DNA of 64,000 nucleotides from Verrucomicrobia bacterium UBA3841 (lineage in GTDB: Bacteria; Verrucomicrobiota; Kiritimatiellia; RFP12; UBA1067), in NCBI GenBank assembly GCA_002392765.1, contig DGHT01000045.1, forward strand, positions 1,315 to 65,314. The letters are read 5' to 3'. The first letter of the stretch is position 1; every line of letters starts with the position of its first letter. Under the pieces are notes generated by a model that was given only the letters and a program-made list of their open reading frames with translations, was not told the DNA's origin and did not search any database. Shown piece after piece: positions 4,079-36,672 of this stretch. Position numbers and translations under genes: made by a program.

Positions 4079-4098
4079 AAATTTCACAGCGGCGGAAA

Positions 4099-18906: not shown

Positions 18907-18945
18907 TTATGCTATAATATTATCAATAAAAATGGAGATAGTACG

Positions 18946-20163: not shown

Positions 20164-20201
20164 CGCTCCGCAAAAAACGGCAATCCGCCCCGTGCCGCAC
20201 C

Positions 20202-20403: not shown

Positions 20404-20424
20404 GGAGCTTGCATCCTTCTGCCA

Positions 20425-21090
20425 CTACCGCAACATCCCATAACCAGGTATCACGACTTCGAGCGGACCGTATAACTCGGGCGCATAATGGTATGGCGCG
20501 ACAGAATATTCTGCGAAAACGAAGTGCAGACCATCCTTGCCGACATAGAAATTCTCCGAAAGCGAGGCGAGTACCTCGTTTGCCGTCGGCAGCAAATTCA
20601 TTTCCCCGCCGATCTTGGCGATTACGGCCTCTCGCACCCTTGCAATCGCCTCAGCGCGTTTGCCTTCCGGGATTACGTCGGCGGTAGTCAGCCGCTTCCC
20701 CGTCCTCACATCTATCGTCCCGACTTTGACAACCGTGCCGCCATGCGCTCCACCAGTGTACCTGAAGCATTCCGCACGATAGCTGAAGAACGTCCGTTGG
20801 TCGGTATAAACCACCTTGTATTCAGACTTGTATTCCCGTGTGGTCAGCATGTAGAACCCGCCGCCCTCCGGCTCGAAATAACTCGCCAGGTTCGTGTCGC
20901 CAAAGACATCCCGAACCTCGTTCACATAGCAATCCAGGTAATTCCTGAAATCGCTCGCAAAGGCATCGGCATCCTTCACAACAGAGTCGCACGCGCCCCC
21001 CTCTCGTCCAACTTCGCCATATCTGCACCCGCCCACCAAAGCGATACCCAATACCAGACAGCCGATTATGATCACGATGCTCTTTTTCAC
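20425..21090 (-). CDS. lipoprotein with DUF4163/DUF3298-like domains
   Basis: 221 aa with a GTG start and lipobox LVGGC. FRYTGGAHGG is characteristic of the DUF3298 (RsiV-like) fold. Confidence 0.6.
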   Translation of the reverse strand: MKKSIVIIIGCLVLGIALVGGCRYGEVGREGGACDSVVKDADAFASDFRNYLDCYVNEVRDVFGDTNLASYFEPEGGGFYMLTTREYKSEYKVVYTDQRTFFSYRAECFRYTGGAHGGTVVKVGTIDVRTGKRLTTADVIPEGKRAEAIARVREAVIAKIGGEMNLLPTANEVLASLSENFYVGKDGLHFVFAEYSVAPYHYAPELYGPLEVVIPGYGMLR

Positions 21091-21279
21091 GGCATCTCCT
21101 CCCTATCCAATTCACCAATGGCAAGAAGCAGCCCCAAGGTCGATTCCAATATCATCGCGACAAAACAGCTTTGACATGATGCTCATACTTGCGTTCCTTT
21201 CTATGTGATACTCGCCTTACTCGAATATACGATCCTCTCGCAAAATTATGACAAGGCTGTTCCCGACATCCCCGCCGTA

Positions 21280-22569
21280 CTATCCGTTGAACAGCACTTC
21301 GCGAAGCTTTTCCGGCGACGCTTTGCAGTTGCGCGGAAGGCTCAGCACGAGCGAGCAATTCTCCGGACGGAAAATTTCGGCCGCAAGACTCTGCAGGTCG
21401 GAAGCCGATACGCTGCGAATACGTTCCACTTCCTCGTCGATTCCTTCAATTTTCTTATGATTTTCCAAACATCCTTTAAGTATGTTGTATTCACCCTCGC
21501 AGTTGGCTTCGTTCCCCAAGATGGCGATGCTGGCAAACTTCTCGCGCAGGAAAGCGAGCTCTTGGCGTCCGACCGGTTTGCCGGCGAGCGCCTTAAGCTC
21601 GTGTCCGCAGAGTGCGAGCGCCTTCTCGATCGAATCAGGAGACACCTCGGCGCTAATGCATATCGTTCCATTATCTTCTTCCGCGCCGAAGAAGGCCCCG
21701 ACTGCATAGGCAAGGCCGTGGCGCTCGCGCACGCTTCGATACAGGCGGGAACTCGAACCGCCTCCGAGGATGGACGTCAGAAGCGTCTGCGCATCCTTGC
21801 GGGGATCCGAGTCCGCCACGCCTCGAAACGATATGATGAAGCCCGCACCCGACTCGTCGCAGCGATCCACCGCGACAGGTTTTACGGGCCAATCCGGGGA
21901 GGCCCGGCGGTAGCGAGGCTCTGGCGCGTCCGAAAGCGCGTCGAACACGGGACGGACGCGCTCGACGATCTCATCATGGTCGACCTTTCCCGCCGCGATG
22001 AACATCGCGCCCCGCGATGTGTAGCGCGCGCGGTGGAACGCCTTGAGAGAATTCGCGTCGATAGACGCTATCGACTCCGGCGTTCCGATGATCGGCCTGC
22101 CGAGCGGATGTCTGGGCCACAACGACTCGTTTACAAGATGAAAAAGCCTGCTGGCCGAATCGTCTGCCGCCATCCGGATTTCCGAGAGAATTGCATTGCG
22201 CTCGATCTCGATATCCGGCTGGGAAAAGAGCGGATGTGCAATCGCGTCTCCCAAGACTCCAATGGTTTTTCCAATGCCGTAGGCGGGAACATGCGCATAG
22301 AACCTGGTCCAGAGATCCGACGTCTCGGCATTTTTGCACCCGCCGAATCTGCCCAGAATGCGATTGATGATTTTCTGCGATGGATACTTCTCCGATCCAC
22401 GCAGGACCATGTGTTCTGCAAAGTGGCTCCATCCTGCCTCGGACGCCTTCTCGCGGCGGCTGCCCATCGGGATGTGGAACCCGAGATGGCAGACGTTCGA
22501 CCCCTTCATCTCAGACGTCGCGACGCACGCCCCGTTTTCAAGCTTCGTGATCTTCACATTCTCGAACAT
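21280..22569 (-). CDS. M16-family (pitrilysin/insulinase-like) zinc peptidase
   Basis: 429 aa. It carries the inverted zinc motif HFAEH (HxxEH) followed by the RGSEKYP region. Confidence 0.8.
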   Translation of the reverse strand: MFENVKITKLENGACVATSEMKGSNVCHLGFHIPMGSRREKASEAGWSHFAEHMVLRGSEKYPSQKIINRILGRFGGCKNAETSDLWTRFYAHVPAYGIGKTIGVLGDAIAHPLFSQPDIEIERNAILSEIRMAADDSASRLFHLVNESLWPRHPLGRPIIGTPESIASIDANSLKAFHRARYTSRGAMFIAAGKVDHDEIVERVRPVFDALSDAPEPRYRRASPDWPVKPVAVDRCDESGAGFIISFRGVADSDPRKDAQTLLTSILGGGSSSRLYRSVRERHGLAYAVGAFFGAEEDNGTICISAEVSPDSIEKALALCGHELKALAGKPVGRQELAFLREKFASIAILGNEANCEGEYNILKGCLENHKKIEGIDEEVERIRSVSASDLQSLAAEIFRPENCSLVLSLPRNCKASPEKLREVLFNG

Positions 22570-22602
22570 TTCTTCGTTCCTTTCGTTATGTTACTTTTAT
22601 GT

Positions 22603-22728
22603 TTAACAACCCTTGAACAGGAAGATGAGTACAACCAGAACTATGATTATCCCCAAACACCCTGAATTATCATCTCTGTGAATATGTATCCACTCATCCG
22701 ATCTTGCGTGAATATGGCGATGTCTCAT
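22603..22728 (-). CDS. small His-rich membrane peptide (41 aa, not in ORF track)
   Basis: My own translation is MRHRHIHARSDEWIHIHRDDNSGCLGIIIVLVVLIFLFKGC. A strong SD (AAAGGAGGGAAAAATG) precedes it, and it has one hydrophobic helix. Confidence 0.3.
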   Translation of the reverse strand: MRHRHIHARSDEWIHIHRDDNSGCLGIIIVLVVLIFLFKGC

Positions 22729-22798
22729 TTTTCCCTCCTTTTTCAGTTTATGAGATTAGTTTGTATGTCGGCGTTGTCTTTTATCGACTAATCATACA

Positions 22799-23566
22799 CT
22801 ACCCTGCGATGCCATCTACCGAATCGGGCGTCCGATCTCTTCTATGCACGCATTCCGCACCTCGATACGAAATTTTCAGGTCTTTCGAGCATGACACGAA
22901 CACCGCGTCCAACGGTTCGTTTTCCAGATGTCGAGGTAGCGACACGTTCTTAAGATGCCTACATCCAAGAAACGCGCACCGCCCTAAGCGCATCACACTA
23001 TCGGGTATTGTTATGCTTTCAAGTTGTATGCAATCATCAAACGCATTCTCCTTGATTTCTTTAACACCATGGGAAATCGTTACATGCAACAGACTACAGC
23101 AAGATGAAAATGCATACATAGGAATACTCTCTAATGTCGAAGGTATCGTCACGCGTACTAATCCATAGCACATGATGAATGCGGAAAAGCCCATCCACAC
23201 GACACCTTCCGGTATGTCCACCCACCTCAGTCCTTCGCATCCAGCAAATGCGCATTCTCCAATAACCCTTACGCTTGGCGGAATCTTGACGCATGTCAAC
23301 ATCGGACTGTATGCAAACGCAGATTCACAAATCCATACCACACTATCCGGCATAGTCACACCTGTCAATTCGCCGCAACCAGCGCTAAACGCAAGACCGC
23401 CTATGCGCTTGACAGGGAGACCCTCTATTTCGGAAGGTATCGCGACATACCCATGCGCCGCTTCCCCCCAAGTAACCGTAACATACGGCACCGCTTCATC
23501 AGCAGCATTGCCGCCAATTTCAACTTCATACTCCAGCTTCGCACCTGGCAATCTTATCTTACCCAT
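22799..23566 (-). CDS. BspA-type leucine-rich-repeat (LRR_5-like) protein
   Basis: Start taken at MGKIRLPG, preceded by AAGGAGGA. There are repeated roughly 23-aa units of the form IP.SV..IGE.AF..C..L..V.IP. Confidence 0.7.
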   Translation of the reverse strand: MGKIRLPGAKLEYEVEIGGNAADEAVPYVTVTWGEAAHGYVAIPSEIEGLPVKRIGGLAFSAGCGELTGVTMPDSVVWICESAFAYSPMLTCVKIPPSVRVIGECAFAGCEGLRWVDIPEGVVWMGFSAFIMCYGLVRVTIPSTLESIPMYAFSSCCSLLHVTISHGVKEIKENAFDDCIQLESITIPDSVMRLGRCAFLGCRHLKNVSLPRHLENEPLDAVFVSCSKDLKISYRGAECVHRRDRTPDSVDGIAG

Positions 23567-23689
23567 TCCAGCTCCTCCTTGCTTTGTTTTCATAATTGCT
23601 TGTCTATATTGCCTTGCAAATATGCTTTTAAATCCCCAGTCCCATGTCACAACCTTCTCTTTGTCCTTCGCGGTGTACTACAGACCTCT

Positions 23690-23962
23690 TTATTTTCCCA
23701 CATAAACTTTCGGAGGAAATAACCCCAGATACACTTCTCCTTTTCTGGGATGCCAAGTCGTGCGCGAATACTCCCCACTTCCTCCGCATTTGCGGCAAGT
23801 CTTTCCATGGACTTTGCCAGAACCATTGCAGCGGAAACATTCGCCGCTTACCTCCTTGTACCTACAACCGAATAAGTTTTTACCACGCTTCACACGTGTA
23901 TCACGCTTATTACCTGCGAAAGCCGATAGGATCGCGCACCCAACCAGAAGCTCTACGATCAT
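23690..23962 (-). CDS. small membrane-anchored protein with DnaJ-CR-type zinc finger
   Basis: Start taken at MIVELLVGCAILSAFAG, preceded by AAGGAGGA. The motif is CFRCNGSGKVHGKTCRKCGGSG (two CxxCxGxG units). Confidence 0.5.
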   Translation of the reverse strand: MIVELLVGCAILSAFAGNKRDTRVKRGKNLFGCRYKEVSGECFRCNGSGKVHGKTCRKCGGSGEYSRTTWHPRKGEVYLGLFPPKVYVGK

Positions 23963-23978
23963 CTCATCCTCCTTACTT

Positions 23979-24506
23979 TTAACCATTTTTCTGATACACA
24001 CCCATGCCGCCACATTTGCGACACGTTTCCCCCGTTTTATGGAACACTCCTGTCCCATTACAGCGGAAACATATGCCGCTGTATGACCTTGAATAGCCAG
24101 GGAGTATCACACCCCTGCGTCCGCGCCACGAGCCAACAGATTCCCCATCTTCCCCATAATGCTCAAGCTTGTCACAATTCCCGAACAATCCGCAATTCAT
24201 AGTCTTTACAGACTTCTTGACCCGCCCGTGTTCAAACTCCAACTTCTCAACATCGTGCCCCCAGGCATCTTTCTTGATGCTGCCTTTCCCGACTCTTCTT
24301 CCATCCCGATAGACCTTGACATCCGTCCGATCGCCAAAGAAGCCTTGCCCATGCTTATACTCCTTCGTTGTCCCTGTGTCGTAATTGTGGACCACCGTCT
24401 TCTTGTTGCCCCAGAAGTCCCTAGTCCTAGTAATCGTCGTTCCAGACTGCGTCAGATAGTTGAACATCCTTCCGAGCAGTCCTGTCTCGCGTCTTCCATG
24501 TCCCAT
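23979..24506 (-). CDS. protein with C-terminal DnaJ-CR-type zinc finger (paralogous finger to 23690..23962)
   Basis: Start taken at MGHGRRETGLL. The upstream part of the track ORF would run through the AT-rich promoter region. The C-terminus is CFRCNGTGVFHKTGETCRKCGGMG. Confidence 0.5.
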   Translation of the reverse strand: MGHGRRETGLLGRMFNYLTQSGTTITRTRDFWGNKKTVVHNYDTGTTKEYKHGQGFFGDRTDVKVYRDGRRVGKGSIKKDAWGHDVEKLEFEHGRVKKSVKTMNCGLFGNCDKLEHYGEDGESVGSWRGRRGVILPGYSRSYSGICFRCNGTGVFHKTGETCRKCGGMGVYQKNG

Positions 24507-24643
24507 GGCACACACCTTTCTATTTGATCTACCCGATGGCACCCACTCGAGCGCCTCACTATATGTCTGAAATCCACAAACAGCCCTCCTTACCCCATTT
24601 TGACAGCATAATCTATTTATTTTAATATGTATACCTATTGGTA

Positions 24644-24672
24644 TTGACATTTCATATTTAAAATGATACAAT
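24644..24672 (+). promoter_or_regulatory. near-consensus sigma-70 promoter for the RtcR-like gene
   Basis: TTGACA (24644-24649), a 17-nt spacer, then TACAAT (24667-24672). The ATG follows 38 nt downstream. Confidence 0.55.
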
Positions 24673-24709: not shown

Positions 24710-26647
24710 ATGGACAGCAAAGGCAGAAAAGTTGTTGTATTCTCTTTTTTCGACGAAACAGAGGACTATCGCGGCATAATCAATGCCGCACTTAGAAAAG
24801 ATTGGGAGAATGAGGTTGACAAGTGGGCAGAGAATAGCTATTCAGGAGAAAGACCCTCAAGAAATAAATATAAGAAAAACAGCACCAAAAAGTTTTCCGA
24901 AACACATAATCCAGAAGAAATTGACAAAACGTACTGGCGGCCATCCACCGCCTTGGCACTCTCATTACGGGAAAGACAAAAAATTACCATAGACGAGTAT
25001 CACCTATTCTATCAACCGAAATTAAAAGATCACGAAAGCGAGCAACTCAATGGTACACACTATATTAAGGATGCAATTGAACGTTTAGTGCCAGGCATTA
25101 AAGTTAATCTTGAGAAAATTGACATAGGCAACGGTCACAATCTCAAGATCGTGTACGAAAACCTCTTTACATACTTTCTGAATTACTTTAATCCATCACA
25201 AGCAGACGCTAACACCACGAACATTCGATATCTAGTCCACGTCACATCTGGTTCACAGGCCGTCCGCATGTGCCTCTTTCTTCTCGCCCAGAACAGATGG
25301 ATACCAGCTGAATGCATTCAACTCTGGACAACAAAAAAGAACGATCCAGTCGGGGAATGCTCAATAACAGCGCTTGGGGCTTCGACCAAAGGGGAAACCA
25401 AGCTCTTGCAGAACGACCCCGAATCCCTTGGCGAAATTATCGAAACAAGAGATAAAGACTACAGCAACACACTTGCATATATTAAGCGGATTGCAGACAA
25501 AACTAATGAACCAATCTTGCTATTGGGCGACACTGGAGTCGGAAAATCCCAAATTGCGAAGTTAATATTCGACCATCGTAAAAAATCCCTTGCAAGCAAA
25601 GATGACTATATATCAAACAAAAACAATGAATGGATTACAAAGGATGGAGCCTTTAAATGGGTTAACTGTAGCGGCCTCGACGACGCTCTTGTAAATGACA
25701 CTCTGTTTGGGCATGTGAAGGGTGGGTACACAGGCGCGACAGAGGACAAAGCTGGGCTAGTAGAACTGGCCTGTGGAGGTGTGTTGTTTCTGGATGAAAT
25801 AGGCAATCTCCCTATCGAAACACAAGGGAAATTGCTTACTCTCATTGACGAGCATAAATTCAACCCCATTGGTGATCGCGGAGCGCCAAAAGAATCTAAA
25901 TTCCTCCTCATCTGCGCTACCAATGAATGGATACCAGATCTAATTGAGAAAGGTAAGTTTCGCCGTGATCTTTTTGAACGTATTCGTACTTGGACATTCC
26001 GCATTCCAAATCTTAAAGAGCGCCCGGACGACATTGACCTTAACATTGACAACCTGTTAAAGATCTTCAGCAGAGACAATGGCACCAATATTCAGTTCAG
26101 CAACGAACTGTCACGCCAAAATTTCCTATCCGCCATAAAAGGCATGACGTTCAATGGTAATTTCAGAGAACTAAGACGGATCATATGGCGTATGGCAACC
26201 ATTGCCACACTTGAAAAACACGTCATTGACGACAGCATAATTCAAGACGAAATCGAAAGACTCAAAAGCGAGCAGGAATGGAATAACAAGTCCTCGTCCA
26301 AGCAAGTGCAGTCACCACCCAAGATAGCATCTATCAACGAAACCTTTGCCGACAAAGTCTTGAATGCCATCCACCAAAAATATGACATCAAATCTAATAT
26401 CAACAACATTGAACTTCATCAACTGCGGCACGTTATTGAGGTTTGTTTACGAAGCAAGACAGGTGCGGCCGCTGCGAGAGAACTGTTTAATGTAAGTTTA
26501 AAAGATAAAGGCAATGGTTTAGGCGCTAAAAGCAATGCCTCCGATTATATGAGCCGTTATTTTAGGCGAAAAGCCATTAGCCAGCTAGGCATCGACTTTG
26601 ACACGATTAAGTCTATCGCAAGGGAGCTCCGCCAAAAAACTACTTGA
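24710..26647 (+). CDS. RtcR-like regulator: CARF-like N-terminal domain, sigma-54-interaction AAA+ domain and C-terminal HTH
   Basis: 645 aa that is collinear with my recollection of E. coli RtcR. The matching blocks are YLVHVTSGSQAVRMCLFLLAQNRWIPAECIQLW, Walker A GDTGVGKS, LFGHVKGGYTGA (a GAFTGA-loop variant, 25721-25738), GGVLFLDEIG, GKFRRDLFERIRTWTFRIPNLKERPDDI and NGNFRELRRIIWRMA. Confidence 0.85.
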   Translation: MDSKGRKVVVFSFFDETEDYRGIINAALRKDWENEVDKWAENSYSGERPSRNKYKKNSTKKFSETHNPEEIDKTYWRPSTALALSLRERQKITIDEYHLFYQPKLKDHESEQLNGTHYIKDAIERLVPGIKVNLEKIDIGNGHNLKIVYENLFTYFLNYFNPSQADANTTNIRYLVHVTSGSQAVRMCLFLLAQNRWIPAECIQLWTTKKNDPVGECSITALGASTKGETKLLQNDPESLGEIIETRDKDYSNTLAYIKRIADKTNEPILLLGDTGVGKSQIAKLIFDHRKKSLASKDDYISNKNNEWITKDGAFKWVNCSGLDDALVNDTLFGHVKGGYTGATEDKAGLVELACGGVLFLDEIGNLPIETQGKLLTLIDEHKFNPIGDRGAPKESKFLLICATNEWIPDLIEKGKFRRDLFERIRTWTFRIPNLKERPDDIDLNIDNLLKIFSRDNGTNIQFSNELSRQNFLSAIKGMTFNGNFRELRRIIWRMATIATLEKHVIDDSIIQDEIERLKSEQEWNNKSSSKQVQSPPKIASINETFADKVLNAIHQKYDIKSNINNIELHQLRHVIEVCLRSKTGAAAARELFNVSLKDKGNGLGAKSNASDYMSRYFRRKAISQLGIDFDTIKSIARELRQKTT

Positions 26648-27311
26648 AGAGTCGCCGCAAAGGAATGCTTCCATTACTCCAAGCAAGACGGGCTGCACCC
26701 AAGTACTTCGAAAATGACGGCAATAGAATTTTCTGATCTTTTTTCGCATTAAGAACCTCTAGAAACTCCGTCTGCGTAATCGGCTTATGCTTTGAAAGAA
26801 ACTCGACCGGGGAGGCTAACTGCTTCATAGCACCAGGCTCCATAAGCCATTCAGCAGTTGCACAATAGGCTTCACGGCGCTGAACAAGCTTCAGTAAAGT
26901 GTTTCTGCCAAGTACACTACGTCCAACATATGTCTCTCCCCCCATCTCTGGCACGTCTATTTCAATCCTACCATCTTCATTTCGAAATACGCGAAGCACA
27001 TATGCGGCATCCGTCAAAAAAGGCCCCGTCTCGAAAACCTCGGACAAAACCGCATCACTTTCGACCGTTAATGCATCTTCATCCGAGAAATCCCACTCCG
27101 CGTCAAACACTTCCTCGGCAAGCTCATCGTCTATTGCCAAATCTTCATATCCAACGGAAATATCCTGGACTATGTGCCCTCGCTGCTCCAGTTCCTGTAA
27201 GTTGCGCTGCACTTCCAGAGGCCCCCCAGAACAAACTATATCGGCCAGAACGTGTAATGCCTGAGTTTGCTTCGTCTGCTGTTCCTGCCCAATACCAAAT
27301 CCGAGGCCCAT
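26640..27311 (-). CDS. truncated sigma-54 (RpoN)-like factor, about 223 aa
   Basis: It has a Gln/Leu-rich Region-I-like N-terminus (GIGQEQQTKQTQALHVLADI...LEVQRNLQELEQ) and an acidic Region-II-like stretch. This is followed by AYVLRVFRNEDGRIEIDV, RNTLLKLVQRREAYCATAEWLMEPGAMK and KPITQTEFLEVLN...LPSFSKYLGAARLAWSNGSIPLRRLF, which resemble the sigma-54 DNA-binding region up to the HTH (..STISRVT..KY..TPRGIFELKYFF). No RpoN box is present. The start at 27311 has an AAGGAGG 9 nt upstream, inside the RNAP gene's end. Confidence 0.6.
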   Translation of the reverse strand: MGLGFGIGQEQQTKQTQALHVLADIVCSGGPLEVQRNLQELEQRGHIVQDISVGYEDLAIDDELAEEVFDAEWDFSDEDALTVESDAVLSEVFETGPFLTDAAYVLRVFRNEDGRIEIDVPEMGGETYVGRSVLGRNTLLKLVQRREAYCATAEWLMEPGAMKQLASPVEFLSKHKPITQTEFLEVLNAKKDQKILLPSFSKYLGAARLAWSNGSIPLRRLFK

Positions 27312-27312
27312 C

Positions 27313-30300
27313 TTAAGCATCCTCCTTTCCGCAAGTCTTTTCGCGATGCCCCCAGCGATTGAACATCACCTTGGCAAATGGTGAATCAAATGACAACACA
27401 CCGTCGCTTATCGCAAGTTCAAATATCTGCCGTTTCTGCCTCTGAAAAAGAATATCCGTAAACGTTTTGTCCGCCGATTTATCAGCTGCCGCACTATTTT
27501 TCGTTGCCTCTCGTTTCTTCTTCAGTGCCTCCCAGAGGATTTCCAGATACTTATCGTCAATTTCCGCATATTCGGTCTCTTCATTATCCCCATTTTTTCT
27601 AATTGCATTTATAAAACCGACCTTATCGTCATCCCTAACATAATCTCTATGTTCAGGACTCCCCTTCTCCCCAACTTCCCCGGTTAAGAACAACGCACGG
27701 GATCGCGCGATGTCGATTCCCTTCCCACCTGTATGGAACCCCTGCATCGCGACCTGAAGTCCCCTTTCGCCTATTGCCTGCGCCGCGATAAGACCTTCTT
27801 GCCCTTTCGGCCAGAGCATAAACACAAGGCGACGCGTAAGATCGCCGGCCTTACCTGCACCAAGCTTCTTATTGCACATAGTGGTGCGAGCATTTAACGA
27901 CGACCAGAACATTTCGTCCCACGACATCCCATGCACGAGCGAACAATCGAACTTCTTGGCCTTATCCGGGATTAGGTCTTTTGAGTACCCCAAATGATCC
28001 ATGTCCACATGCAACTCGCCTCGCGAACCTATTAATTGGCGTATTTGGCTTTGACCGTTTGCACCCGACCTGACCATGTCCAAAACTGACTTCTCTCCGG
28101 CAGACAGATCGGACGCTCCACGCACTTTGTCGAGAATGCCTTGCTCCTCCATCTTCCCAACTCGCGAACTAAGGTCTAATAAATCATAGAACCCAAAGGA
28201 CACGCCTTGGCGTGTACATGCATGATAAGCAAGACGGGCGAGAGCAGCAATCGCCTTTGCCGACTTCTCACCATTCTCCTCGGACAACTCATCAATAAGT
28301 TTCTTGCCGAACTCGCCAGGCTTATCAAACTTCTCCTCAAATAGCTTGCGAATCCCGTCATCCAGATTAATCTCGTCAATCTCTTTCTTATACTTCACCT
28401 GGTTCTCATAGACAATCTGCAGCCCAGTCACAAAATCGCGGTCATACTGCGCCGAAGCTTTTCCCGTACCTATCATACGAAGATTATTGCGCGGTAGCAT
28501 TACAACAGCCTCTTTCTGGGCCTCGTCAGATACAGGATAGTGTCCAACCATCTCGTCACCATCGAAGTCGGCGGCAAAACCCTTGCAGCAGAGCGGCGAT
28601 ATCTGCAGCACTTCGCCGTCTTCGGGCTTCAATGGCTCAGGGTAAAACGCCTGAAAGCCATGACGATGAAGTGTTGGCTGACGATTGAGCAAAATCAACT
28701 GCGGATGTTCATTCAAATAGTCGCGAAGCAACTTATACTTCTCGTCATCTGTAAGCGAAGAAGCGGCCTTATTCCACCACCATCCAACGCGCAGTACAAT
28801 TTCGGAGTCATTCGATCCAGACACTACCGTTTCTGAGTCTGCAGGATTGCTTGTTTCAGCCCCCATAAACGAAGCTAATACTCTGTCTCCCATCAATTCC
28901 CACAGGACATCTGTCGGTACGCGGACCTTATCCCATTCCAATTCGGGATTTGGCGTAATGACCAATCGGAATGAACGATCAACGCGACGCCCCAGTCCTT
29001 CGCGACGCAACAATCCATCCTTTTTGTCAAGACGATTAGCGATTTCCACGAACAGCTCTTTGACCGCTGTCTTAACACCGGCCAAGCACTTCTCTTTATC
29101 TTTAACTCCACATGCCCTAACAAGTTTGCGGTAGAGGTTATTAATCTCGGCGCAGCTTGCCGCATTGTCGGATATTTCCGGGATCGGCCGTCGATAGCGA
29201 ATCGGGAGAACTGGTATAATTGTTAGTTTGGGCAGTTCCTGTCCCAACGACCTCAAATCTTTTGCAGATATGCCAAAAGCATCGTATGGATAATCAACTG
29301 GCTCTGGAAGTTTAACATATCCCCACTTATCATCGCAAAGTTCCGGCTTTCTCCAATCACCAAATATCACTTCGTCAAATATACTGCCCGGATTGGCTTT
29401 ATAATAACACCCGTATGGAGGCGTCGCTTTCAGAGAGATTGTCGCGTGGTGAGGACATGTGACAGAGAAGTCTCCCAGCGCCGGACCCTCTTTCTCTCCA
29501 CATAACGAACTAAGAAGATCTTTAGCGGATCTGTTAAGCGGTTTGCCAGCCACCTTCCCCTTGCTAAACCTCCCGTAACAGGTCATCGTTTCCATACCAA
29601 CCGGCCATTTAGGAGGTTGCATTCCAGGCTTAGGAACAATCTCAGCCTTTATCCAGTCTTTCTGCGGGTCATAGTCTTTTAGCGTCACAACAAGAGTACA
29701 TTTGGGAGCGCCCTCAACCGGAGTTAAATCCCACTCAAAGACCGCAGGTCCCATGCCTTGACCTGGCATCGGATGAATAGGCTTTGTGCAATCATACCCC
29801 CAGCTGCGCAAAACACTCTTAACTCTGAGCGCATTGGTGTTTTTGTTGTCACCACTACCTTTTGGCAGCTTCTCATTGCCAAACGGCATCCCACATCCTT
29901 TGGGACAGACAAACGAAGCTGTTGGCTCCTTTGAAACACCACCGGCAGACAACACACGCTGCGCACCATTGTCTTCAATCCATTCCCTGATCGTCTCTTC
30001 TGACATTAACGAGAATCGAACCTTGTCTGCCCCTGCCTGCTCCATATCAATCCCAAGCGCCCAAAGCCAATCTCGCGCAACTCGCGGGAATCCAGAAAAC
30101 AGCTCCTTTACAGGCGGGGCTCCTTCAGCTTTCCATTCGCTCGCCCATTCAACGTCGGACTTCGCGCCCAGCATCTCTTCAAGAATATGCGGCACGCCGT
30201 ATGCAGCAAGCGCCCACACCTCCATCTCCCCCAGTCTCTGCCCGCCGCCAATTCGACGTCCATGCGCAGCCTGCCGAGTGGTAGACGAATATTTTGCATC

Positions 30301-32473: not shown

Positions 32474-34468
32474 TCATTCAAGACTCAACATCTTCTTAGC
32501 AATTTCTATCTGCCCTTCTGCAAATACAGAAAACACATCATACGTTTGAACGGTATTTACATTTGCACACACATGTCCAACACACTGGGAAGCAACGTCT
32601 TCCCCGCCAAGTAGACCATTTCTCGAGAAAGTCATATGTGCATTTCTCATCAACGGGTTTACTCTTGCTCTTAGAGAATCCGTCCATGGTGGACCATTCT
32701 GTTCCACTTCATCAGGATTAAATTCTATCGCCGCAGCCCCATCCTTTGGGCCAGAATAAATCAGCCAACTCTGATTCGGTAGTTTATCATTAAACCACAC
32801 GCCATCACGATATTTATCTCGCTTCTCTACGTCATTTGTGTCAAGATACGGGCAAGATTTTGCATCCAAAACAATCCAATACTGACTTTCTGGAGAATTA
32901 TCACTATAAAACACAATTGCATAATCAGGAGTCAACAGATAGCGAGACGTAAAACCTCTTATGTTAGAATTCTGGTCTTGATATGCTCTAATGCCGCCGT
33001 ATAATTCCACCCTCAATGGACAATCTCTCTGTTTTAGTTTTGCACAGATTGGGCCATTGAATGTTGGTCCAAGATGAATATTCTTGATGCATTGCACGAC
33101 TTGCCTTGCATAGTTAGTCCCAAGATCTTCAAGTCCCTCATTCATAAATGCTTGGACAAGACGCTTAAACACCCATGCCTCATATATAAACGAGTAGTTC
33201 TTTTGCCAAGTTGAACATTCGCCATCATCCAAATCGCGCACATGCTTGGGTAAACGAAAACAACCATTCAAACGGCCCTTAAAGTCTCGCAATTTCAAGA
33301 AGTCCATCATTAATTTATGTGTACGGTTATATGCTTCAGTATTAGGAATGTCAACAGTTGCGAGGTAATCAATGGAACCGGAAACAACGCCTATGCACTG
33401 CATCCATGGACATCCTTCCGTGAAGAAAGGTTGACACTGCCCAACAATCTCCCTCACTTTATCAATCAAAGACCGTTTGAATTCAATTTCTTTCTTTATA
33501 TCCTTAAGAAGGAATTTATCGATATCCGGAACCTTGCTCAACCAATCTTCATCTGCCGATATACTATCTTTTATTTTGTGTATCAAATCAACCACGCAGT
33601 TCTTAAAATACAACAGGAATCCTTTTATTGCCCTATGTATCGGCACATCGTATGACATTGACAACACTGGAGCATAAACCTTTCCATGAGATATTCCCAA
33701 CGACAATCTGCGATTCATATCACGTCTTGTCTTCGATGATATCTTACGTAGTTTCTCCTGGGGAGTCCTCTGATAAGATCTCACAACACCCCCCGCACAT
33801 CTACTTGCAATGTCTAAAAGATATGGCTTCAATGAACTTATCAAACCTTTAAACTCGAGAATTTGCCTCTCTACATCCCTAAGAATGCTCGCCGTCTCGG
33901 AAGAAAAACATTCCTCTTTTATGTTTGTCCTTGAAAGCCCCTCAAATGTAGAAAGAACCGCAGAAGGATTCACACCAATCATCTCATCAACCATACGATC
34001 CAACAACTGCTTCTTGTCAGGATTCGGCTCTACCTTAATGTCAAACTCTGCAATAGTAACCCATTCAAAGTTTTCTGTCATGTTAGCGCGACGACGTAGC
34101 CGCAGCATTGACGGCCCAGAAGCACCACGCAACATCTGCATTCTAAAAACATGAACTTTGTTACCTTTATTATCCTTTCCCCATGTAAAGAACCGCCCTC
34201 CCGAGTCTGTCTGTGGTTCATAATCTGGTCGATACGCAAGTTGTAATTGATATAAAGAATCCAAGTCTTCATTGGGGGCAATCTTTTCAAGTCTCGCCTC
34301 CAAAAACAGAAGGTCACTAACAGCACCTTTGACGCCCCACGCACCTTCGCTAAAGTGAATAAGATTTCGAATGCTGCCCACCACCCCATCGCCAAGAGGA
34401 AGCGATGGTGTTTCAACGAAAGACTCCTTGGAATCTTTATCCTTATAAAAGAAAATCTTAAGATCCAT
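32474..34468 (-). CDS. McrC/DUF2357-like protein with C-terminal PD-(D/E)xK nuclease motif
   Basis: 664 aa. FIYEAWVFKRLVQ is followed by LLTPDYAIVF ... WIVLDAKS (D515, D535-x-K537; 32858-32929). It is immediately downstream (7 nt) of the McrB-like gene. Confidence 0.65.
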   Translation of the reverse strand: MDLKIFFYKDKDSKESFVETPSLPLGDGVVGSIRNLIHFSEGAWGVKGAVSDLLFLEARLEKIAPNEDLDSLYQLQLAYRPDYEPQTDSGGRFFTWGKDNKGNKVHVFRMQMLRGASGPSMLRLRRRANMTENFEWVTIAEFDIKVEPNPDKKQLLDRMVDEMIGVNPSAVLSTFEGLSRTNIKEECFSSETASILRDVERQILEFKGLISSLKPYLLDIASRCAGGVVRSYQRTPQEKLRKISSKTRRDMNRRLSLGISHGKVYAPVLSMSYDVPIHRAIKGFLLYFKNCVVDLIHKIKDSISADEDWLSKVPDIDKFLLKDIKKEIEFKRSLIDKVREIVGQCQPFFTEGCPWMQCIGVVSGSIDYLATVDIPNTEAYNRTHKLMMDFLKLRDFKGRLNGCFRLPKHVRDLDDGECSTWQKNYSFIYEAWVFKRLVQAFMNEGLEDLGTNYARQVVQCIKNIHLGPTFNGPICAKLKQRDCPLRVELYGGIRAYQDQNSNIRGFTSRYLLTPDYAIVFYSDNSPESQYWIVLDAKSCPYLDTNDVEKRDKYRDGVWFNDKLPNQSWLIYSGPKDGAAAIEFNPDEVEQNGPPWTDSLRARVNPLMRNAHMTFSRNGLLGGEDVASQCVGHVCANVNTVQTYDVFSVFAEGQIEIAKKMLSLE

Positions 34469-34475
34469 ACGCTAA

Positions 34476-36479
34476 TTATACTTGCATGATTCTTTTAGTG
34501 TAGTCATCTATTCGCCTTTTCAAGAGCTCCGCAGAAAGTGGTAACTTGAGAACATCCGAGTTTACATTCTGATCGCCCTTGCCACTCACCTCAATTTCAA
34601 ATCCTTTGTTAACGTTATCGTAAAGTGTATTAATAGCAGTTATCGTCCCTGGTGTGGGTCTGCATGCAAAAAACACCCTTTGCGCGAGAAATTCATCCAG
34701 CGCGACTTTCTGTCGCTCGGCTTCAGTAAGGAATGAATTATTTCCTTCATATGGAGGCCTGTTCCGAATATATGTAAACATATCTGAGACAATACGCCCG
34801 CTCATATCGAACCCTGCGTCTGACATAATGCTTTCATTCCCATCCTTAGGTCCTAGAAGAGACAAAATGGCGTTAACAATTATATTGTCAATGTCGCGAG
34901 ACGACTCACACCAACGCTTAAAGGTCCCATATGTGATTGGTTCTCGGCCGACGAAAGGCTTTATTTCAGGGGCATTTCCATCTGCAAGATCCGTCACAAG
35001 CTTCTTCGTAGTTTCAAAAGAACTTGCTAGTTCAATGGTGTTGCAGCGACTTAAAAAACGCGGACTCAATGGGCGTGTTGTTTCGTCCGAATTACATGTA
35101 CCGATCACGCGGAAGTTTTGCTCCACAAACAAGTCCATGCCATTATCCTTACACCCAGGAATCACCCCCATTCCTCGACTCATGATTTGGATAAAATCAG
35201 AGAAGTAATGCTCAACACATGCAAGATTCATTTCTTCAAAACAGACAATGCCCATCGGCAAGTTCTCACCTTCAGATATATTCCTTATGAATTCTGCCAA
35301 GTGACTCGGCGCATGCCGAAAACCACCGTCTGTCTCATAGCCAAGTAGATCCGCAGGTTCCATCCATGCCGGGTTAACAAAAATCTGCCGCCACGACCGC
35401 TCGGCCGGCGGCCGCTCGGCGTCATTCTTTGCGGGCGAACCAGCAACAGCCCTCATATACAATTCTGCCAATGAAGATTTACCTGTGCCGGGGTTACCCG
35501 CTAACAGCGTACACATCGAACACTTGACGCTTGTGTGTAGTCTTACTAGATCGGCCGTGCTATACTTGAAGCCGCACCTTTTGACATATTGCTCAAAACT
35601 TTTCAAAAAAGATATCTCTGTCTCATCCCATTTATCGTCATCCTTGTTGCCTGCACTTTCATGTGACGAATTCTTTCCTGTCAAGCCAGCCGTATCAGAA
35701 GTGGCATCACCAGTCGCTTGTGGCCGGCCAGATATTGCTCTTTCTACGCTATCGCCAACATTGGCACCTATCATGCCGCCTCCACTCAACGGCTCGTCAT
35801 CTTCTGCCTCTGCCCCACGTTCACAACCATCATCGACGGGCAACTTTCGCCAAATGTTTTCATCCGCAAGAAGATCGTCGGTAGTCACATTTTTGAACGG
35901 ATTCACTAACACAAATTGGTCACCATTAAACTTGATCTCCTTACGACGATCGTCATTGCTGAAGAAATAAAACGTCTGCTTCAGGGTCTTCTCCTCATGA
36001 TCCGGCAACCGATCTTCACGAACACCTTCTCCAACTTGAACACGGCCCGTCTCACGATCATAAGTAAATCCTGAATAAAACTTGTTTTCATCTGAAATGA
36101 TAACGTCTCGCGTCCATATTTTATACTTTGGACATAGCCCTTTTGCTGAATTATTTCGGATGAAATCATCCAACGAGGTAGTCTTTGACTCCTCAAATTC
36201 TTCCCATTTCCTCATCTGCACAGGGCGTTTTGCGTTTGCAAATAGGAGTGTCTTTCCATTTTTTACTGTGCACACCGCAAACTCATCACAGACGCAATAT
36301 GGCTTTTCCCCTGAATCAACATGTATTTCACGATCGCCAAGAGGATTGCCAGCTGCATCTACTGCGCTTTTCAATATATGCTTTCGAACTGCGCCTGTCG
36401 CATCACGATCGCGATCATCGTATATCCCATAAATAAAGTCGTCCTTCTTGACATTCCTATTGTAGTGTTTTGGTGCCAT
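34476..36479 (-). CDS. McrB-like AAA+ (AAA_5) NTPase with large unknown N-terminal domain
   Basis: Start taken at MAPKHYNRNV, preceded by AAGGAGAG. Walker A is LLAGNPGTGKS (35475-35498). Walker B plus the McrB-type segment is IVCFEEMNLACVEHYFSDFIQIM, followed by VIGTCNSDETTRPLSPRFLSRCNTIEL. Confidence 0.75.
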   Translation of the reverse strand: MAPKHYNRNVKKDDFIYGIYDDRDRDATGAVRKHILKSAVDAAGNPLGDREIHVDSGEKPYCVCDEFAVCTVKNGKTLLFANAKRPVQMRKWEEFEESKTTSLDDFIRNNSAKGLCPKYKIWTRDVIISDENKFYSGFTYDRETGRVQVGEGVREDRLPDHEEKTLKQTFYFFSNDDRRKEIKFNGDQFVLVNPFKNVTTDDLLADENIWRKLPVDDGCERGAEAEDDEPLSGGGMIGANVGDSVERAISGRPQATGDATSDTAGLTGKNSSHESAGNKDDDKWDETEISFLKSFEQYVKRCGFKYSTADLVRLHTSVKCSMCTLLAGNPGTGKSSLAELYMRAVAGSPAKNDAERPPAERSWRQIFVNPAWMEPADLLGYETDGGFRHAPSHLAEFIRNISEGENLPMGIVCFEEMNLACVEHYFSDFIQIMSRGMGVIPGCKDNGMDLFVEQNFRVIGTCNSDETTRPLSPRFLSRCNTIELASSFETTKKLVTDLADGNAPEIKPFVGREPITYGTFKRWCESSRDIDNIIVNAILSLLGPKDGNESIMSDAGFDMSGRIVSDMFTYIRNRPPYEGNNSFLTEAERQKVALDEFLAQRVFFACRPTPGTITAINTLYDNVNKGFEIEVSGKGDQNVNSDVLKLPLSAELLKRRIDDYTKRIMQV

Positions 36480-36495
36480 CGTACTCTCCTTATTT

Positions 36496-36672
36496 TTAAA
36501 TTCCAACCTCTTGCTGAGCTTGCAGTCTCCGATCCAAGTCCAATTGCATATAATCCACCGCTACAGAACGAAGCCCCATAAAATCATATCCAAGATCATC
36601 AAGAAACATTTTCGCTACAAAATAATTGGCATCAACTAATGCGTTGAAATACCTGTACTTATTCTCTTCCAT
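36496..36672 (-). CDS. 58-aa acidic helical protein, first gene of the island operon (not in ORF track)
   Basis: My own translation is MEENKYRYFNALVDANYFVAKMFLDDLGYDFMGLRSVAVDYMQLDLDRRLQAQQEVGI. A strong SD (GAGGAGGAGGCTCTACAATG) precedes it. Its composition is AT-rich like the island. Confidence 0.4.
   Translation of the reverse strand: MEENKYRYFNALVDANYFVAKMFLDDLGYDFMGLRSVAVDYMQLDLDRRLQAQQEVGI

Follow-up and report, generated by a model that had tools for sequence, protein, structure and literature searches.

The island and its genes

When examining the window, that is, the whole 64,000-nucleotide stretch of DNA analysed here, we observed a horizontally acquired genomic island, with a GC content of 42-52% against about 60% in the flanks, in which a gene for a bacterial enhancer-binding protein (bEBP) of the RtcR type meets, tail to tail, an operon for a compact, single-chain RNA polymerase (RNAP) and is read divergently from a set of cargo genes (Table 1).

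Table 1. Features of the island, with positions in the window
Feature	Positions	Strand	Evidence or description
Further genes in cargo direction	20425..23650	-	BspA-type LRR, M16 peptidase, DUF3298/PdaC
DUF3298/PdaC protein	20425..21090	-	
M16 peptidase	21280..22569	-	
BspA-type LRR protein	22799..23650	-	
First cargo gene, 175 aa from ATG at 24506	23979..24506	-	ORF; C-terminal CxxCxGxG zinc-ribbon motif
Promoter-like element facing the cargo genes	24538..24580	-	conservation in related loci
Sigma-70-type promoter of activator gene (TTGACA-17-TGaTACAAT)	24644..24672	+	promoter scan, conservation
RtcR-like bEBP (activator) gene	24710..26647	+	645-aa ORF; Pfam, NCBIfam, PADLOC, AlphaFold
CARF-like sensor domain (residues 1-222)	24710..25375	+	Pfam RtcR at residues 74-221; AlphaFold strand order
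Helical insert directly after strand 1 (residues 16-88)	24755..24973	+	alignment, AlphaFold; not in canonical RtcR
Sigma-54-interaction AAA+ ATPase domain (residues 247-428)	25448..25993	+	PF00158 Sigma54_activat, 141 bits
Walker A	25526..25549	+	intact
Sigma-54-contacting loop GGYTGA (GAFTGA in the canonical form)	25721..25738	+	sequence, alignment
Walker B	25784..25804	+	intact
GNFRELRR motif	26156..26179	+	sensor II position by analogy with other bEBPs
C-terminal helical region, presumed DNA-binding HTH (residues 585-645)	26462..26644	+	RtcR HMM collinear to 624; AlphaFold
Overlap of two convergent stop codons, 8 nt	26640..26647	.	ORF coordinates
Small partner (226 aa); candidate specificity factor, resembling a truncated sigma-54	26640..27320	-	synteny, weak sigma-54 similarity
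Compact fused beta-beta' RNAP, 1715 aa	27313..32460	-	Rpb2_6/7, Rpb1_2/5 domains; catalytic motifs
Catalytic DFDGD motif of the RNAP	28555..28569	-	
664-aa protein, same operon as RNAP	32474..34468	-	without Pfam, NCBIfam, PADLOC or PDB match
AAA_5 (McrB/MoxR-type) ATPase, 676 aa, first large gene of RNAP operon	34476..36506	-	PF07728

The initial annotation had proposed that the activator gene possesses its own near-consensus sigma-70 promoter and that its stop codon overlaps that of the convergent gene with no terminator in between, and both proposals held. The promoter (TTGACA at 24644-24649, a 17-nt spacer and TGaTACAAT at 24664-24672) matches the consensus in 11 of 12 positions, includes the extended -10 TG, is the best sigma-70-type match within 22.5-37.5 kb, and retains its architecture in all 8 relatives examined (the loci named are L001, L002 and L004-L008). 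The stop codon of the activator gene (TGA, 26645-26647) and that of the 226-aa ORF on the minus strand (cta, 26640-26642, read TAG) share an overlap that, across nine loci, varies from 14 nt to a 7-nt gap. A terminator scan between the convergent genes found none and picked up only a weak hairpin within the 226-aa gene (26701-26689), and folding of both strands gave no stable hairpin (z-scores +1.96 and -0.01); collision or antisense pairing of the convergent transcripts is plausible with this arrangement. The three metatranscriptomes from the source sample, the only ones available for it, showed no coverage of the island, and no Rfam RNA family was found in 18-42 kb.

The fused RNAP combines Rpb2_6/7 domains (residues 554-769) with Rpb1_2/5 domains (residues 1157-1600) and contains, in addition to the catalytic DFDGD, the motifs GNKGV, SRMN (SRMNxGQ), GEMEVWAL and RQPTLH; its closest solved relatives are the bacterial beta and beta' subunits. 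The family to which it belongs is a separate one with about 80 clusters, whose lengths span 1043-1896 aa and mostly lie at about 1,430-1,900 aa; the locus encodes no alpha or omega partner. The fused RNAP is absent from phage, plasmid and IMG/VR collections, where only cellular rpoB/rpoC matches were obtained, and a phage-borne polymerase was rejected; the N-terminal domain of the activator likewise has no match in these collections. Of the two other large genes of the operon, the AAA_5 ATPase matches the PADLOC candidate PDC-M26A (E 1.6e-16), and the 664-aa protein contains, by eye only, a PD-(D/E)xK-looking stretch, 'PDYAIVF...VLDAKS'.

The activator is RtcR-like but not an RtcR orthologue

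RtcR of Escherichia coli and Salmonella is the sigma-54-dependent activator of the rtcBA RNA-repair operon; RtcR that lacks its N-domain is constitutively active. The island activator has the domain order of RtcR, namely, the RtcR-type, CARF-like N-terminal domain, the Sigma54_activat AAA+ domain and the C-terminal helices. Pfam RtcR (PF06956) is recognized with 61.2 bits (cut-off 23.1), AAA_lid_14 is found at residues 436-522, the PADLOC profile RtcR--CARF_AAA_HTH matches with E 2.4e-101, and the NCBIfam RtcR equivalog NF038308 aligns with 345 bits (E 8.6e-103) along residues 75-624, which bears out the collinearity with RtcR originally noted for the N-domain, the AAA+ domain and the C-terminal part. 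The same 345 bits fall well short of the curated equivalog cut-off of 650 bits. Moreover, the lack of RtcBA that had also been pointed out was confirmed: neither RtcB nor RtcA domains are present in the 35 window ORFs scanned or in the precomputed Pfam annotation of nine subfamily loci (flanks of 10 kb or to the contig end). Because the score lies below the cut-off, rtcBA is missing and the motifs of the ligand pocket are rewritten (see below), we rejected orthology and regard the protein as RtcR-like only. It is a member of a rare subfamily from ruminant-gut Kiritimatiellae, in which 15 relatives at 35-77% identity preserve both length and synteny.

The motor domain of the activator bears out the expected sigma-54-activator signatures, and strongly so. 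Besides the strong Pfam match, it shows about 30% identity to solved bEBP AAA+ domains, e.g. those of NtrC1 and FleQ, and its modelled fold matches NtrC1, FleQ and PspF (TM-score up to about 0.9 on target); K279, D362, E363, R418 and R486 are invariant over 68 aligned sequences. The loop that contacts sigma-54 reads GGYTGA, at the position and with the letters first reported. T341 is universal among the 16 subfamily members, of which 11 have F and five have Y as the aromatic residue, and 12 have G and four have D at the fifth position; GAYTGA, GAFTDA and GSFTGA are other versions of the loop in the subfamily, and GSYSGA and GAYTGG are found in more distant loci. Of 52 canonical RtcRs, 45 have A at the second position and 51 keep F as the aromatic residue; all 52 have the second G and 51 the final A, so variants of the kind of GGYTGA, GAFTDA, GSYSGA and GAYTGG are commoner here than in canonical RtcR. 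The C-terminal region, modelled as helices at residues 585-600, 610-618, 621-624 and 630-644, is presumed to be a DNA-binding HTH.

A re-tooled sensor domain

In the AlphaFold model, with pLDDT mostly above 90 in this part, the N-terminal domain consists of six strands (7-13, 96-101, 131-136, 172-177, 200-206 and 216-220), with helices between strands 1 to 5 and none between strands 5 and 6. [quoted passage not shown] 2014, PMC4012209), so the predicted fold is consistent with the CARF assignment that had been put forward; the fit rests on the order of secondary structure elements, and the search with the whole protein fold returned AAA+ matches only. Neither of the two conditions under which the initial annotation was to fail, an N-domain that does not model as a CARF/Rossmann-like fold and an AAA+ domain lacking sigma-54-activator signatures, thus applies. 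The Lys/Asn-rich insertions reported for this domain are real: about 55-60 residues (approximately 20-75) have no counterpart in canonical RtcR and are modelled as confident helices (16-41, 52-55, 58-65, 68-74 and 78-88) rather than low-complexity filler. In other CARF families, inserts after strand 1 have been described as 'caps' of the ligand pocket (PMC4012209).

The motif following strand 1, IGLLGTTLD in canonical RtcR, is FSFFDExED in the subfamily, and the strand-4 motif, HITTGTHVAQI, is HVTSGSQAxRM. In particular, canonical RtcRs (n=52) contain G15 in 51 and L18 in 46 sequences, and T180, H183, Q186 and I187 in all 52, where the subfamily has D, E, S, Q, R and M, respectively. By contrast, the WRP motif, Y174, G181, C188 and Q204 are common to the activator and all 52 canonical RtcRs. 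The CARF signature after strand 4, [DN]x[ST]xxx[RK], corresponds in the activator to H/N177-V-T179-S-G-S-Q183, with the basic residue located three positions further along; this residue, R186, is present in 11 of the 16 subfamily members and is replaced by Q in every one of the 52 canonical sequences.

Salmonella RtcR is activated by tRNA fragments ending in 2',3'-cyclic phosphate (PMC7790460, PMC10159003), and a structure of the RtcR CARF domain was still needed as of 2020 (PMC7790460); comparison of the N-domain profile with PDB sequences detected no RtcR N-domain structure. The initial annotation had extended an RNA-damage-derived ligand to the present protein, an extension that our results neither support nor refute; support is wanting because the strand-1 and strand-4 motifs depart systematically from those of canonical RtcR. 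The RtcR-type sensor domain has been re-tooled: its pocket and its cap are both new, and the signal it serves is probably different from the one known in RNA repair.

A conserved triad and a conserved promoter-like element

In all nine subfamily loci (35-77% identity), the activator gene is arranged tail to tail with a gene for a protein of about 225 aa and the fused RNAP of about 1,700 aa. Four distant loci (L011, L013, L014 and L015), chosen via distant members of the small-protein or RNAP families, all retain the RNAP and the small protein; L011, L014 and L015 also encode a Sigma54_activat AAA+ protein, whose N-terminal region differs, as does the gene order, and L013 has no recognisable activator. 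Thus, the triad is present in 12 of the 13 related loci, a conservation that strengthens the earlier suggestion that the activator is the signal input of the island, so far as comparative genomics can indicate. L015 sits with an integrase and a primase.

The small protein, which belongs to a family with 76 representatives of about 220-355 aa, adjoins the compact RNAP in 13 of 13 related loci. bEBPs are known to act only on sigma-54, and to work only with the cell's own polymerase carrying it; the strict linkage between a bEBP and the small protein therefore predicts that the latter is a sigma-54-like partner. Its first designation as 'sigma-54-like' stands in part: there is a weak remote similarity to sigma-54, but no Pfam match (Sigma54_AID, Sigma54_CBD and Sigma54_DBD failed to match the window protein and 13 close relatives even at E <=10), and every test is below threshold. 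The comparison of a 74-member family alignment with E. coli sigma-54 using hhalign gave E 1.3e-3 and a probability of 18.5% across residues 324-406, the extra-long-helix/HTH region, the module that reads the -12 box. The score of 31.6 was not reached in any of 200 shuffles (mean 13.9, sd 2.4, maximum 22.2); with just the 13 close relatives, the comparison was insignificant, so that it is informative only with the 74-member family. The top match of the family profile in the PDB is Aquifex RpoN, again in this region of sigma-54 (E 0.26), and one family member matches positions 59-92 of Pfam Sigma54_DBD (E 0.19). Hence three matches, each sub-threshold, fall on the same region, so that the resemblance to the DNA-binding core of sigma-54, although weak, is reproducible. 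The short form of the protein, which ends in ...PLRRLFK, lacks the RpoN-box domain and most of the core-binding domain; only the long forms (320-355 aa) are extended at the C-terminus, by a part that can be loosely aligned with the RpoN region. The AlphaFold model of the small protein is poor (pLDDT 46).

Between the activator and the cargo genes, there is a DNA element that consists of TTTGTGGATTTCA (24580-24568), seven intervening nucleotides and AGTGAG (24560-24555), with the core GGATTTCA and a predicted start near 24557. One copy, unchanged in place and orientation, is found in eight related loci, and the consensus, TTTGTGG(A/G)TT(T/G)CA, is present upstream of variable cargo genes in three distant clades; L007 contains three copies, located intergenically between cargo genes, the distant L011 and L014 contain two and one, respectively, and L005 only has a shifted variant, AGGATTTGCT. 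The 8-mer of the element would be expected by chance with a probability of about 0.03 per locus (one strand, a region of about 250 nt), and at least six independent lineages have it. The core of the element, TT[GT]C[AT], coincides with the -12 box of sigma-54 promoters, and the conserved block about 12 nt downstream falls where a start site would be expected; we take the element to be putatively promoter-like. The element lacks a GG 10 nt upstream of the -12-like box, and it could alternatively be an operator for another regulator. In L011, the activator stops right after the AAA+ lid, without an HTH, and yet the element is kept, which argues that it is read by the factor or the polymerase rather than by the activator. 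Canonical -24/-12 promoters (TGGCAC-N5-TTGCW) are present in the window at chance level (25 matches against 24.3 expected), none of them suitably placed.

A predicted signal-gated transcription switch and its alternatives

What is directly observed are the domains, the motifs, the synteny and the conserved element in the DNA. The constant company of the RtcR-type ATPase, the fused polymerase and the small sigma-54-like protein suggests that the island carries a transcription machine that is self-contained and gated by a signal. On balance, we consider it probable, albeit by no means certain, that the activator senses a signal and, as an ATPase, permits the polymerase of the island to transcribe the cargo. 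We infer which parts bind one another, how ATP would drive opening, that a ligand would act and what biological role the cargo would have. A bEBP of RtcR architecture, with a divergent CARF-like sensor, an AAA+ motor and a C-terminal DNA-binding region, would have been recruited away from RNA repair. The host polymerase would produce the activator from the conserved sigma-70 promoter; the activator would cooperate with the products of the two abutting genes, the truncated sigma-54-like factor and the compact RNAP; these two would form a closed complex on the single-box promoter that points into the divergent cargo; and binding of a ligand to the N-domain would free the ATPase, so that the GGYTGA loop remodels the factor and cargo transcription starts. 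If these four steps are correct, the module would be an orthogonal, tightly gated expression switch of the island.

The most serious alternative is that the activator is a conventional bEBP that acts on the host sigma-54 holoenzyme at an island promoter, of either the cargo or the RNAP operon, with the linkage to the RNAP reflecting co-regulation only. This is how canonical RtcR operates (PMC7790460, PMC9879122), and in its architecture the protein is a sigma-54 activator throughout, with the essential T and the aromatic residue retained in the loop; conceivably, the host carries its own sigma-54 that is open to use by the activator. However, promoters of the canonical type are neither enriched nor suitably placed in the window, the conserved element does not include the upstream GG, and the loop is more variable than in canonical RtcR. 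The triad persists across clades with about 29-33% RNAP identity and differing gene orders, which is hard to square with host sigma-54 as the partner, so we hold this scenario to be unlikely, if worth serious consideration.

A still less probable alternative is a defence regulator of the CoCoNuT/McrBC type that senses RNA fragments produced during infection and switches on the AAA_5 ATPase and the 664-aa protein, the RNAP being an effector or a passenger. RtcR homologues are found in, and head, CoCoNuT (McrBC-type) defence superoperons (Bell 2024, PMC11090510), and RtcR-like CARF-AAA-HTH regulators have been linked to restriction-modification systems rather than to Rtc (PMC4012209); the similarity of the AAA_5 protein to a PADLOC defence candidate and the conflict-like cargo of the relatives fit the same picture, as do the lack of rtcBA and the horizontally acquired, conflict-type neighbourhood. 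Those regulators, however, are the 5'-terminal genes of operons read in the same direction, and they are assumed to employ host sigma-54 (PMC4012209, PMC11090510), whereas here the activator is convergent with the AAA_5 operon, and the conserved element lies on the opposite side, facing the cargo. Furthermore, the AAA_5/664-aa pair is present in only five of the nine subfamily loci (the window, L001, L004, L006 and L008) and missing in four, against nine of nine for the RNAP and the small protein, the invariant partners of the activator. RNA polymerase is not mentioned in the CoCoNuT paper (PMC11090510) and is mentioned once, as a target of phage ADP-ribosylation, in PMC4012209.

Finally, the notion that the gene is what is left of a decaying rtc locus, or an ORF called in error, and has no present function, to which the sub-cut-off score and the missing rtcBA might point, is effectively refuted by conservation, and a pseudogene or chance ORF was rejected, inasmuch as the 645-codon frame is unbroken, the ATPase motifs are invariant, the relatives share length and synteny, the promoter is conserved and the AlphaFold model is confident (mean pLDDT 87.4).

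Relationship to known systems and possible role of the cargo

Compared to RtcR as defined by NF038308, with which it shares the divergent CARF, the NtrC-type AAA+ domain and the HTH at about 31% identity over residues 75-624, the activator has the 55-60-aa insert after strand 1, the GGYTGA loop and the changed pocket motifs, and is encoded beside a private polymerase and a sigma-like factor, with neither rtcBA nor a -24/-12 promoter. The AAA+ fold, the GAFTGA-type loop and a TTGCW-type box are shared with the paradigm of NtrC1, PspF and FleQ acting on E-sigma54 closed complexes, but the putative sigma is about 225 aa long, compared to about 480 aa for sigma-54, and neither an RpoN box nor a core-binding domain is detectable in it; there is a single promoter box instead of two, and the locus encodes, as its private polymerase, a beta-beta' fusion but neither alpha nor omega. 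Like the non-canonical two-barrel RNAPs of mobile elements, such as YonO of prophage SPbeta, the non-virion RNAPs of jumbo phages and the virion RNAP of crAss-like phages (PMC7598289), the fused RNAP is a reduced polymerase that is not encoded in the core genome and presumably serves a gene set of its own; unlike these, it clearly derives from bacterial beta/beta', with the motifs kept, and is the only one known to be paired with a bEBP. The fused beta/beta' of Helicobacter and Wolbachia (NCBIfam PRK09603 and PRK14844) similarly comprises both subunits in one polypeptide but is the cell's only polymerase, with 2,200-2,900 aa and all domains, and is separated from the island family by a gap in scores from E 1e-130 to E 1e-69. 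No RtcR-like or bEBP gene with linkage to a fused polymerase was described in the literature searched. It is tempting to propose, although we do so tentatively and with slightly more doubt than conviction, a new class of machine, in which a single-chain beta-beta' RNAP, a miniature sigma-54 relative that uses a one-box promoter and an ATP-driven activator with interchangeable sensors, here a re-tooled CARF, are carried by islands or mobile elements and fire conflict or cargo genes without the host holoenzyme.

If true, the module would amount to a naturally occurring orthogonal system for gene expression, shut off as tightly as is typical under sigma-54 control, and to a minimal model of an AAA+ motor opening a promoter complex. 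It would also suggest a route by which islands express defence or toxic cargo at times when transcription by the host cannot be relied on, and the machine could act even where a phage has disabled host transcription.

A role of the cargo in conflict or defence appears likely, and mobile-element expression is possible. In the related loci, the cargo includes a STAND NTPase, VWA/PP2C/kinase genes, dynamin-like GTPases and a WXG100/FtsK set. The start of the first cargo gene in the window was chosen downstream of the conserved element, behind a Shine-Dalgarno-like AAAGG; its product has no Pfam match and shows weak matches to TIGR02642 and anti-TRAP. M16 peptidases, one of which is encoded further along in the cargo direction, recur in the cargo of L001, L004 and L006.

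A conserved module of activator, small protein and compact RNA polymerase

When examining the surroundings of the RtcR-like activator, we observed that its gene adjoins a minus-strand operon for four proteins, one of which, a fused bacterial-type beta + beta' RNA polymerase, retains the catalytic DFDGD motif as well as the GNKGV, SRMN, GEMEVWAL and RQPTLH motifs. In all nine loci examined of the activator's subfamily (L001-L008 and L012, with one activator protein common to L002 and L003), the activator gene is arranged tail to tail with a gene for a protein of ~225 aa, which is followed by a fused polymerase of 1,713-1,761 aa (in L012, the contig ends within the polymerase gene); the activator gene and the small gene overlap by up to 14 nt or are separated by up to 7 nt. 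The AAA_5 ATPase and the ~660-aa protein, in contrast, are present as a pair in only five loci, the window included; L005 has a STAND NTPase in their place, and L007 lacks the pair.

The small-protein family has 76 representatives among 1.84 billion proteins, and the compact polymerases fall into about 80 clusters of 1043-1896 aa, with most between about 1,430 and 1,900 aa, that are sharply separate from the normal fusions of 2,200-2,900 aa and are absent from the phage, plasmid and IMG/VR collections searched. Four additional loci, chosen via distant members of these two families (L011, L013, L014 and L015), have the polymerase and the small protein side by side, and three of the four contain an adjacent Sigma54_activat AAA+ protein, with other N-terminal regions and gene orders. 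In total, polymerase and small protein occur together in 13 of the 13 related loci, and the activator is present in 12. In L013 (12468-16724), a 1,169-aa protein without a Pfam match follows the pair in place of a recognisable bacterial enhancer-binding protein (bEBP); it might be an activator of another kind. The AAA_5 gene is preceded by two small ORFs of about 58 and 65 aa, below the 80-aa limit of the ORF list; small genes are called in the upstream position in L001 and L006 as well.

Coordinates of the module and of neighboring features in the window
Feature	Position	Strand	Remark
AAA_14/DUF4143-type ATPase gene	15087-16295
AAA_14/DUF4143-type ATPase gene	18889-20163
Repeats	18386-18481, 20185-20438, 36981-37273, 39466-39650, 40087-40145, 41062-41186, 41266-41413		79-nt unit x3 in tandem at 20185-20438
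ORF overlapping first cargo gene	23690-24058	-
First cargo gene	23979-24506	-	175 aa
Conserved element TTTGTGGATTTCA	24580-24568	-	then 7 nt, then AGTGAG
Activator promoter, TTGACA	24644-24649	+	17-nt spacer follows
Activator promoter, TGaTACAAT	24664-24672	+	sigma-70-type
Activator ORF	24710-26647	+	645 residues
Walker A	25526-25549	+	intact
Sigma-54-contacting loop GGYTGA	25721-25738	+
Walker B	25784-25804	+	intact
GNFRELRR motif	26156-26179	+	intact
Small protein	26640-27320	-	226 aa
Fused beta-beta' polymerase	27313-32460	-	1,715 aa
664-aa protein	32474-34468	-	no match
AAA_5 ATPase	34476-36506	-	PADLOC candidate PDC-M26A
Small upstream ORFs	36497-36671, 36737-36934	-
TTTGTGGCGCT string	36700-36690	-
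Fic/DOC protein gene	37344-38309		N-terminal HTH
RelB-type antitoxin gene	38358-38816
Overlapping small ORF	38741-39094
ATPase gene	41473-42636		AAA_14/AAA_16 matches only

The activator and its sensor domain

Judged by its sequence, the activator is RtcR-like but is not RtcR. A database search yielded 15 relatives of 607-682 aa (35-77% identity), as well as canonical RtcRs in the thousands (about 530 aa, about 31% identity). The initial annotation, made from the sequence alone, described a protein collinear with RtcR, and the alignment with the NCBIfam RtcR equivalog indeed spans residues 75-624 (E 8.6e-103), with a score, 345 bits, that is about half of the curated cut-off of 650; the PADLOC RtcR--CARF_AAA_HTH model matches as well (E 2.4e-101). 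The sigma-54-activator signatures expected of the AAA+ domain are recovered by Pfam, which detects the sigma-54 interaction domain (PF00158, residues 247-428, 141 bits) and the AAA+ lid next to the RtcR domain (PF06956, residues 74-221, 61 bits). By analogy to other bEBPs, the GNFRELRR motif would correspond to sensor II. The sigma-54-contacting loop had been read and placed exactly. Across the system, it takes the forms GGYTGA, GAYTGA, GAFTDA, GSFTGA, GSYSGA and GAYTGG and is more variable than in 52 canonical RtcRs (A in position 2 in 45, F in 51, the second G in all 52, the final A in 51), which fits a non-standard partner.

An AlphaFold model of the activator (68-sequence alignment, mean pLDDT 87) shows the N-domain as a six-stranded beta-alpha unit (b1 7-13, b2 96-101, b3 131-136, b4 172-177, b5 200-206, b6 216-220) in which b5 and b6 are consecutive, with no intervening helix, as in a hairpin; given this strand order, the proposed CARF/Rossmann-like fold is borne out at the level of topology. 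The fold search with the whole model yielded AAA+ activators only (NtrC1, FleQ, PspF), and no RtcR N-domain was detectable in the PDB by sequence. The CARF ligand pocket is formed at the positions of the strand-1 and strand-4 motifs, and helical inserts after strand 1 cap it and diversify the ligands (Makarova et al. 2014, PMC4012209). When set against 52 aligned canonical RtcRs, the subfamily has FSFFDExED in place of IGLLGTTLD in strand 1, HVTSGSQAxRMC in place of HITTGTHVAQIC in strand 4, where T180, H183, Q186 and I187 are each invariant in the canonical set (52/52), and about 55-60 extra residues after strand 1 that are modeled as confident helices. Given this rewritten pocket, the ligand of the activator is probably different from that of canonical RtcR.

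The small protein and sigma-54

Neither the 226-aa protein nor its close relatives have a match in Pfam, and the structure model is poor (pLDDT 46). The 74-member family alignment, when compared with E. coli sigma-54 (a sequence checked against Pfam) using hhalign, gave an E-value of 1.3e-3 over residues 324-406; the score was 31.6, whereas 200 shuffles scored 13.9 on average (sd 2.4) and at most 22.2. Aquifex RpoN was the best match among 177,635 PDB sequences (E 0.26), and a single family member matched positions 59-92 of Pfam Sigma54_DBD (E 0.19). Each of these independent signals is weak and below threshold, and all three converge on the extra-long helix and HTH of sigma-54, the elements that read the -12 promoter box. 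A signature is common to the two families, FSRY..L.W..GS.PL..LF in the small proteins and STISR...KY...P.G...LK.FF in sigma-54. A greedier alignment pairs YVLRVFRNEDGRIEIDVPE of the small protein with YVIPDVLVRKHNGHWTVELN of sigma-54 and places the C-terminal extension of the long forms (320-355 aa) against the RpoN-box region, a domain that the short form in the window lacks. Distant homology of the small protein to sigma-54 seems, accordingly to these comparisons, probable but unproven.

Promoters and the convergent junction

The near-consensus sigma-70-type promoter initially assigned to the activator gene is the best such match within 15 kb and is kept in all loci compared, in a spacer between the activator and the divergent gene that is otherwise unalignable. 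The overlap between the stop codons of the activator (TGA, 26645-26647) and the convergent 226-aa ORF (26640-26642) was likewise described exactly, and neither a terminator scan nor folding of both junction strands (z-scores +1.96 and -0.01) revealed a hairpin separating the genes; the only match of the scan nearby is a weak hairpin inside the 226-aa gene (26701-26689). We infer that the strong activator promoter would read antisense through this junction into the sigma-like and polymerase genes, which could act as a brake. Unlike this arrangement, the corresponding genes of other clades are co-directional.

On the strand opposite the activator promoter, a conserved element precedes the start codon of the first cargo gene by about 50-115 nt in the window, L001, L002, L004, L006, L007 and L008. 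L007 has three copies, each in an intergenic stretch of the cargo operon and oriented with the gene; in L011, two copies, TTTGTGGGTTGCA/T, lie a short way downstream of the triad; in L014, TTTGTGGATTGCT is found in the gap separating the activator gene from the following one; and the variant in L005, AGGATTTGCT, is shifted. The core, TT[GT]C[AT], equals the -12 box of sigma-54 promoters, TTGCW, and there is no GG 10 nt upstream, which fits a factor without the RpoN domain that reads the -24 box. Counting the C of the box as position -12 puts the predicted start near 24557, where it coincides with the conserved downstream block. Because the element is there in L011 although the activator of this locus has no C-terminal HTH, it is more likely to be read by the factor or the polymerase than by the activator. 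No copy precedes the polymerase operon; a string upstream of the AAA_5 gene, TTTGTGGCGCT, resembles the first half of the element. Canonical -24/-12 promoters are not enriched anywhere in the window (25 matches vs 24.3 expected).

Proposed mechanism and relationship to known systems

The evidence for the triad and for its mechanism is comparative only. In the mechanism that we favor, the host polymerase would produce the activator as well as, presumably, the products of the polymerase operon; the compact polymerase and the mini-sigma would occupy the one-box promoter without opening it; the N-domain would keep the ATPase off until a ligand binds; and the motor would then open the complex through the GGYTGA loop, allowing transcription of the cargo.

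RtcR homologs without rtcBA are not without precedent, being found beside R-M systems (PMC4012209) and at the head of CoCoNuT/McrBC defense superoperons (PMC11090510). The CoCoNuT paper mentions no polymerase, and the CARF paper names RNA polymerase once, solely as something that phages ADP-ribosylate. In the literature searched, we found no account of a fused polymerase with a linked bEBP. As a protein, the activator is a new variant of the RtcR-like bEBPs; the triad, taken as a system, may represent a transcription module of a new kind.

Genomic context and cargo

The activator sits on a horizontally acquired island. Ordinary chromosomal genes (for glycoside hydrolases, SHMT, shikimate enzymes and ParA) occupy the flanks, which have about 60% GC, compared with 42-52% across 22-38 kb. 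As initially noted, RtcBA is missing: no RtcB or RtcA domain was detected among the 35 window ORFs scanned or in the annotated flanks of related loci. Relatives bear the names of Kiritimatiellae MAGs, and the DNA is found in sheep, bovine and other gut metagenomes; the subfamily N-domain is present in only 2 of 185,579 species-representative genomes, both MAGs, one of goat-ileum Kiritimatiellae and one from rumen. The island has no coverage in the metatranscriptomes of the source sample.

The cargo varies between loci. L002 (1-9806) encodes WXG100, a 1,065-aa FtsK/SpoIIIE ATPase, VWA proteins and a protein kinase, a set reminiscent of type VII secretion in what is presumably a Gram-negative host; L005 carries VWA, PP2C and AAA genes, L007 dynamin-like GTPases, and the window, L001, L004 and L006 small unknown proteins and an M16 peptidase. 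Because the cargo is often conflict-like, a role in defense or toxin delivery is plausible. In L015 (1610-4030 and 15890-17139), an AEP-type primase, an HTH_17 excisionase-like gene and a tyrosine integrase lie beside the triad, which looks to be on an integrative mobile element; this suggests that some versions of the module serve mobile elements. The L011 triad is directly downstream of Cas6, reverse transcriptase, Cas1 and Cas2 (1-4500) and upstream of NUDIX, MazG, AAA and radical-SAM genes; in a CRISPR-like array there (46-257), a 31-nt sequence, GTATGAAGAAAGGACTGCATATAATGCAGAT, is present three times without change, the last copy being truncated where the region read ends.

Short dispersed and tandem repeat families, among them a 185-nt pair and a 59-nt family of four copies, bracket the low-GC island and the adjoining small modules, and contigs assembled from the source run are interrupted at these repeats. 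Just past the island, a Fic/DOC gene is followed by a RelB-type antitoxin gene and a small overlapping ORF downstream that may encode its toxin; they look like a toxin-antitoxin pair, which fits a mobile or defense neighborhood. Three ATPase genes lie around the island, and L001 likewise has an AAA_14/DUF4143 gene in this position. The first cargo gene is overlapped at its 3' end, by about 80 nt, by a second ORF, and both products end in a DnaJ-type CxxCxGxG-x(5-8)-CxxCxGxG zinc-ribbon motif (CFRCNGTG...CRKCGGMG and CFRCNGSG...CRKCGGSG), with weak matches to TIGR02642 and anti-TRAP.
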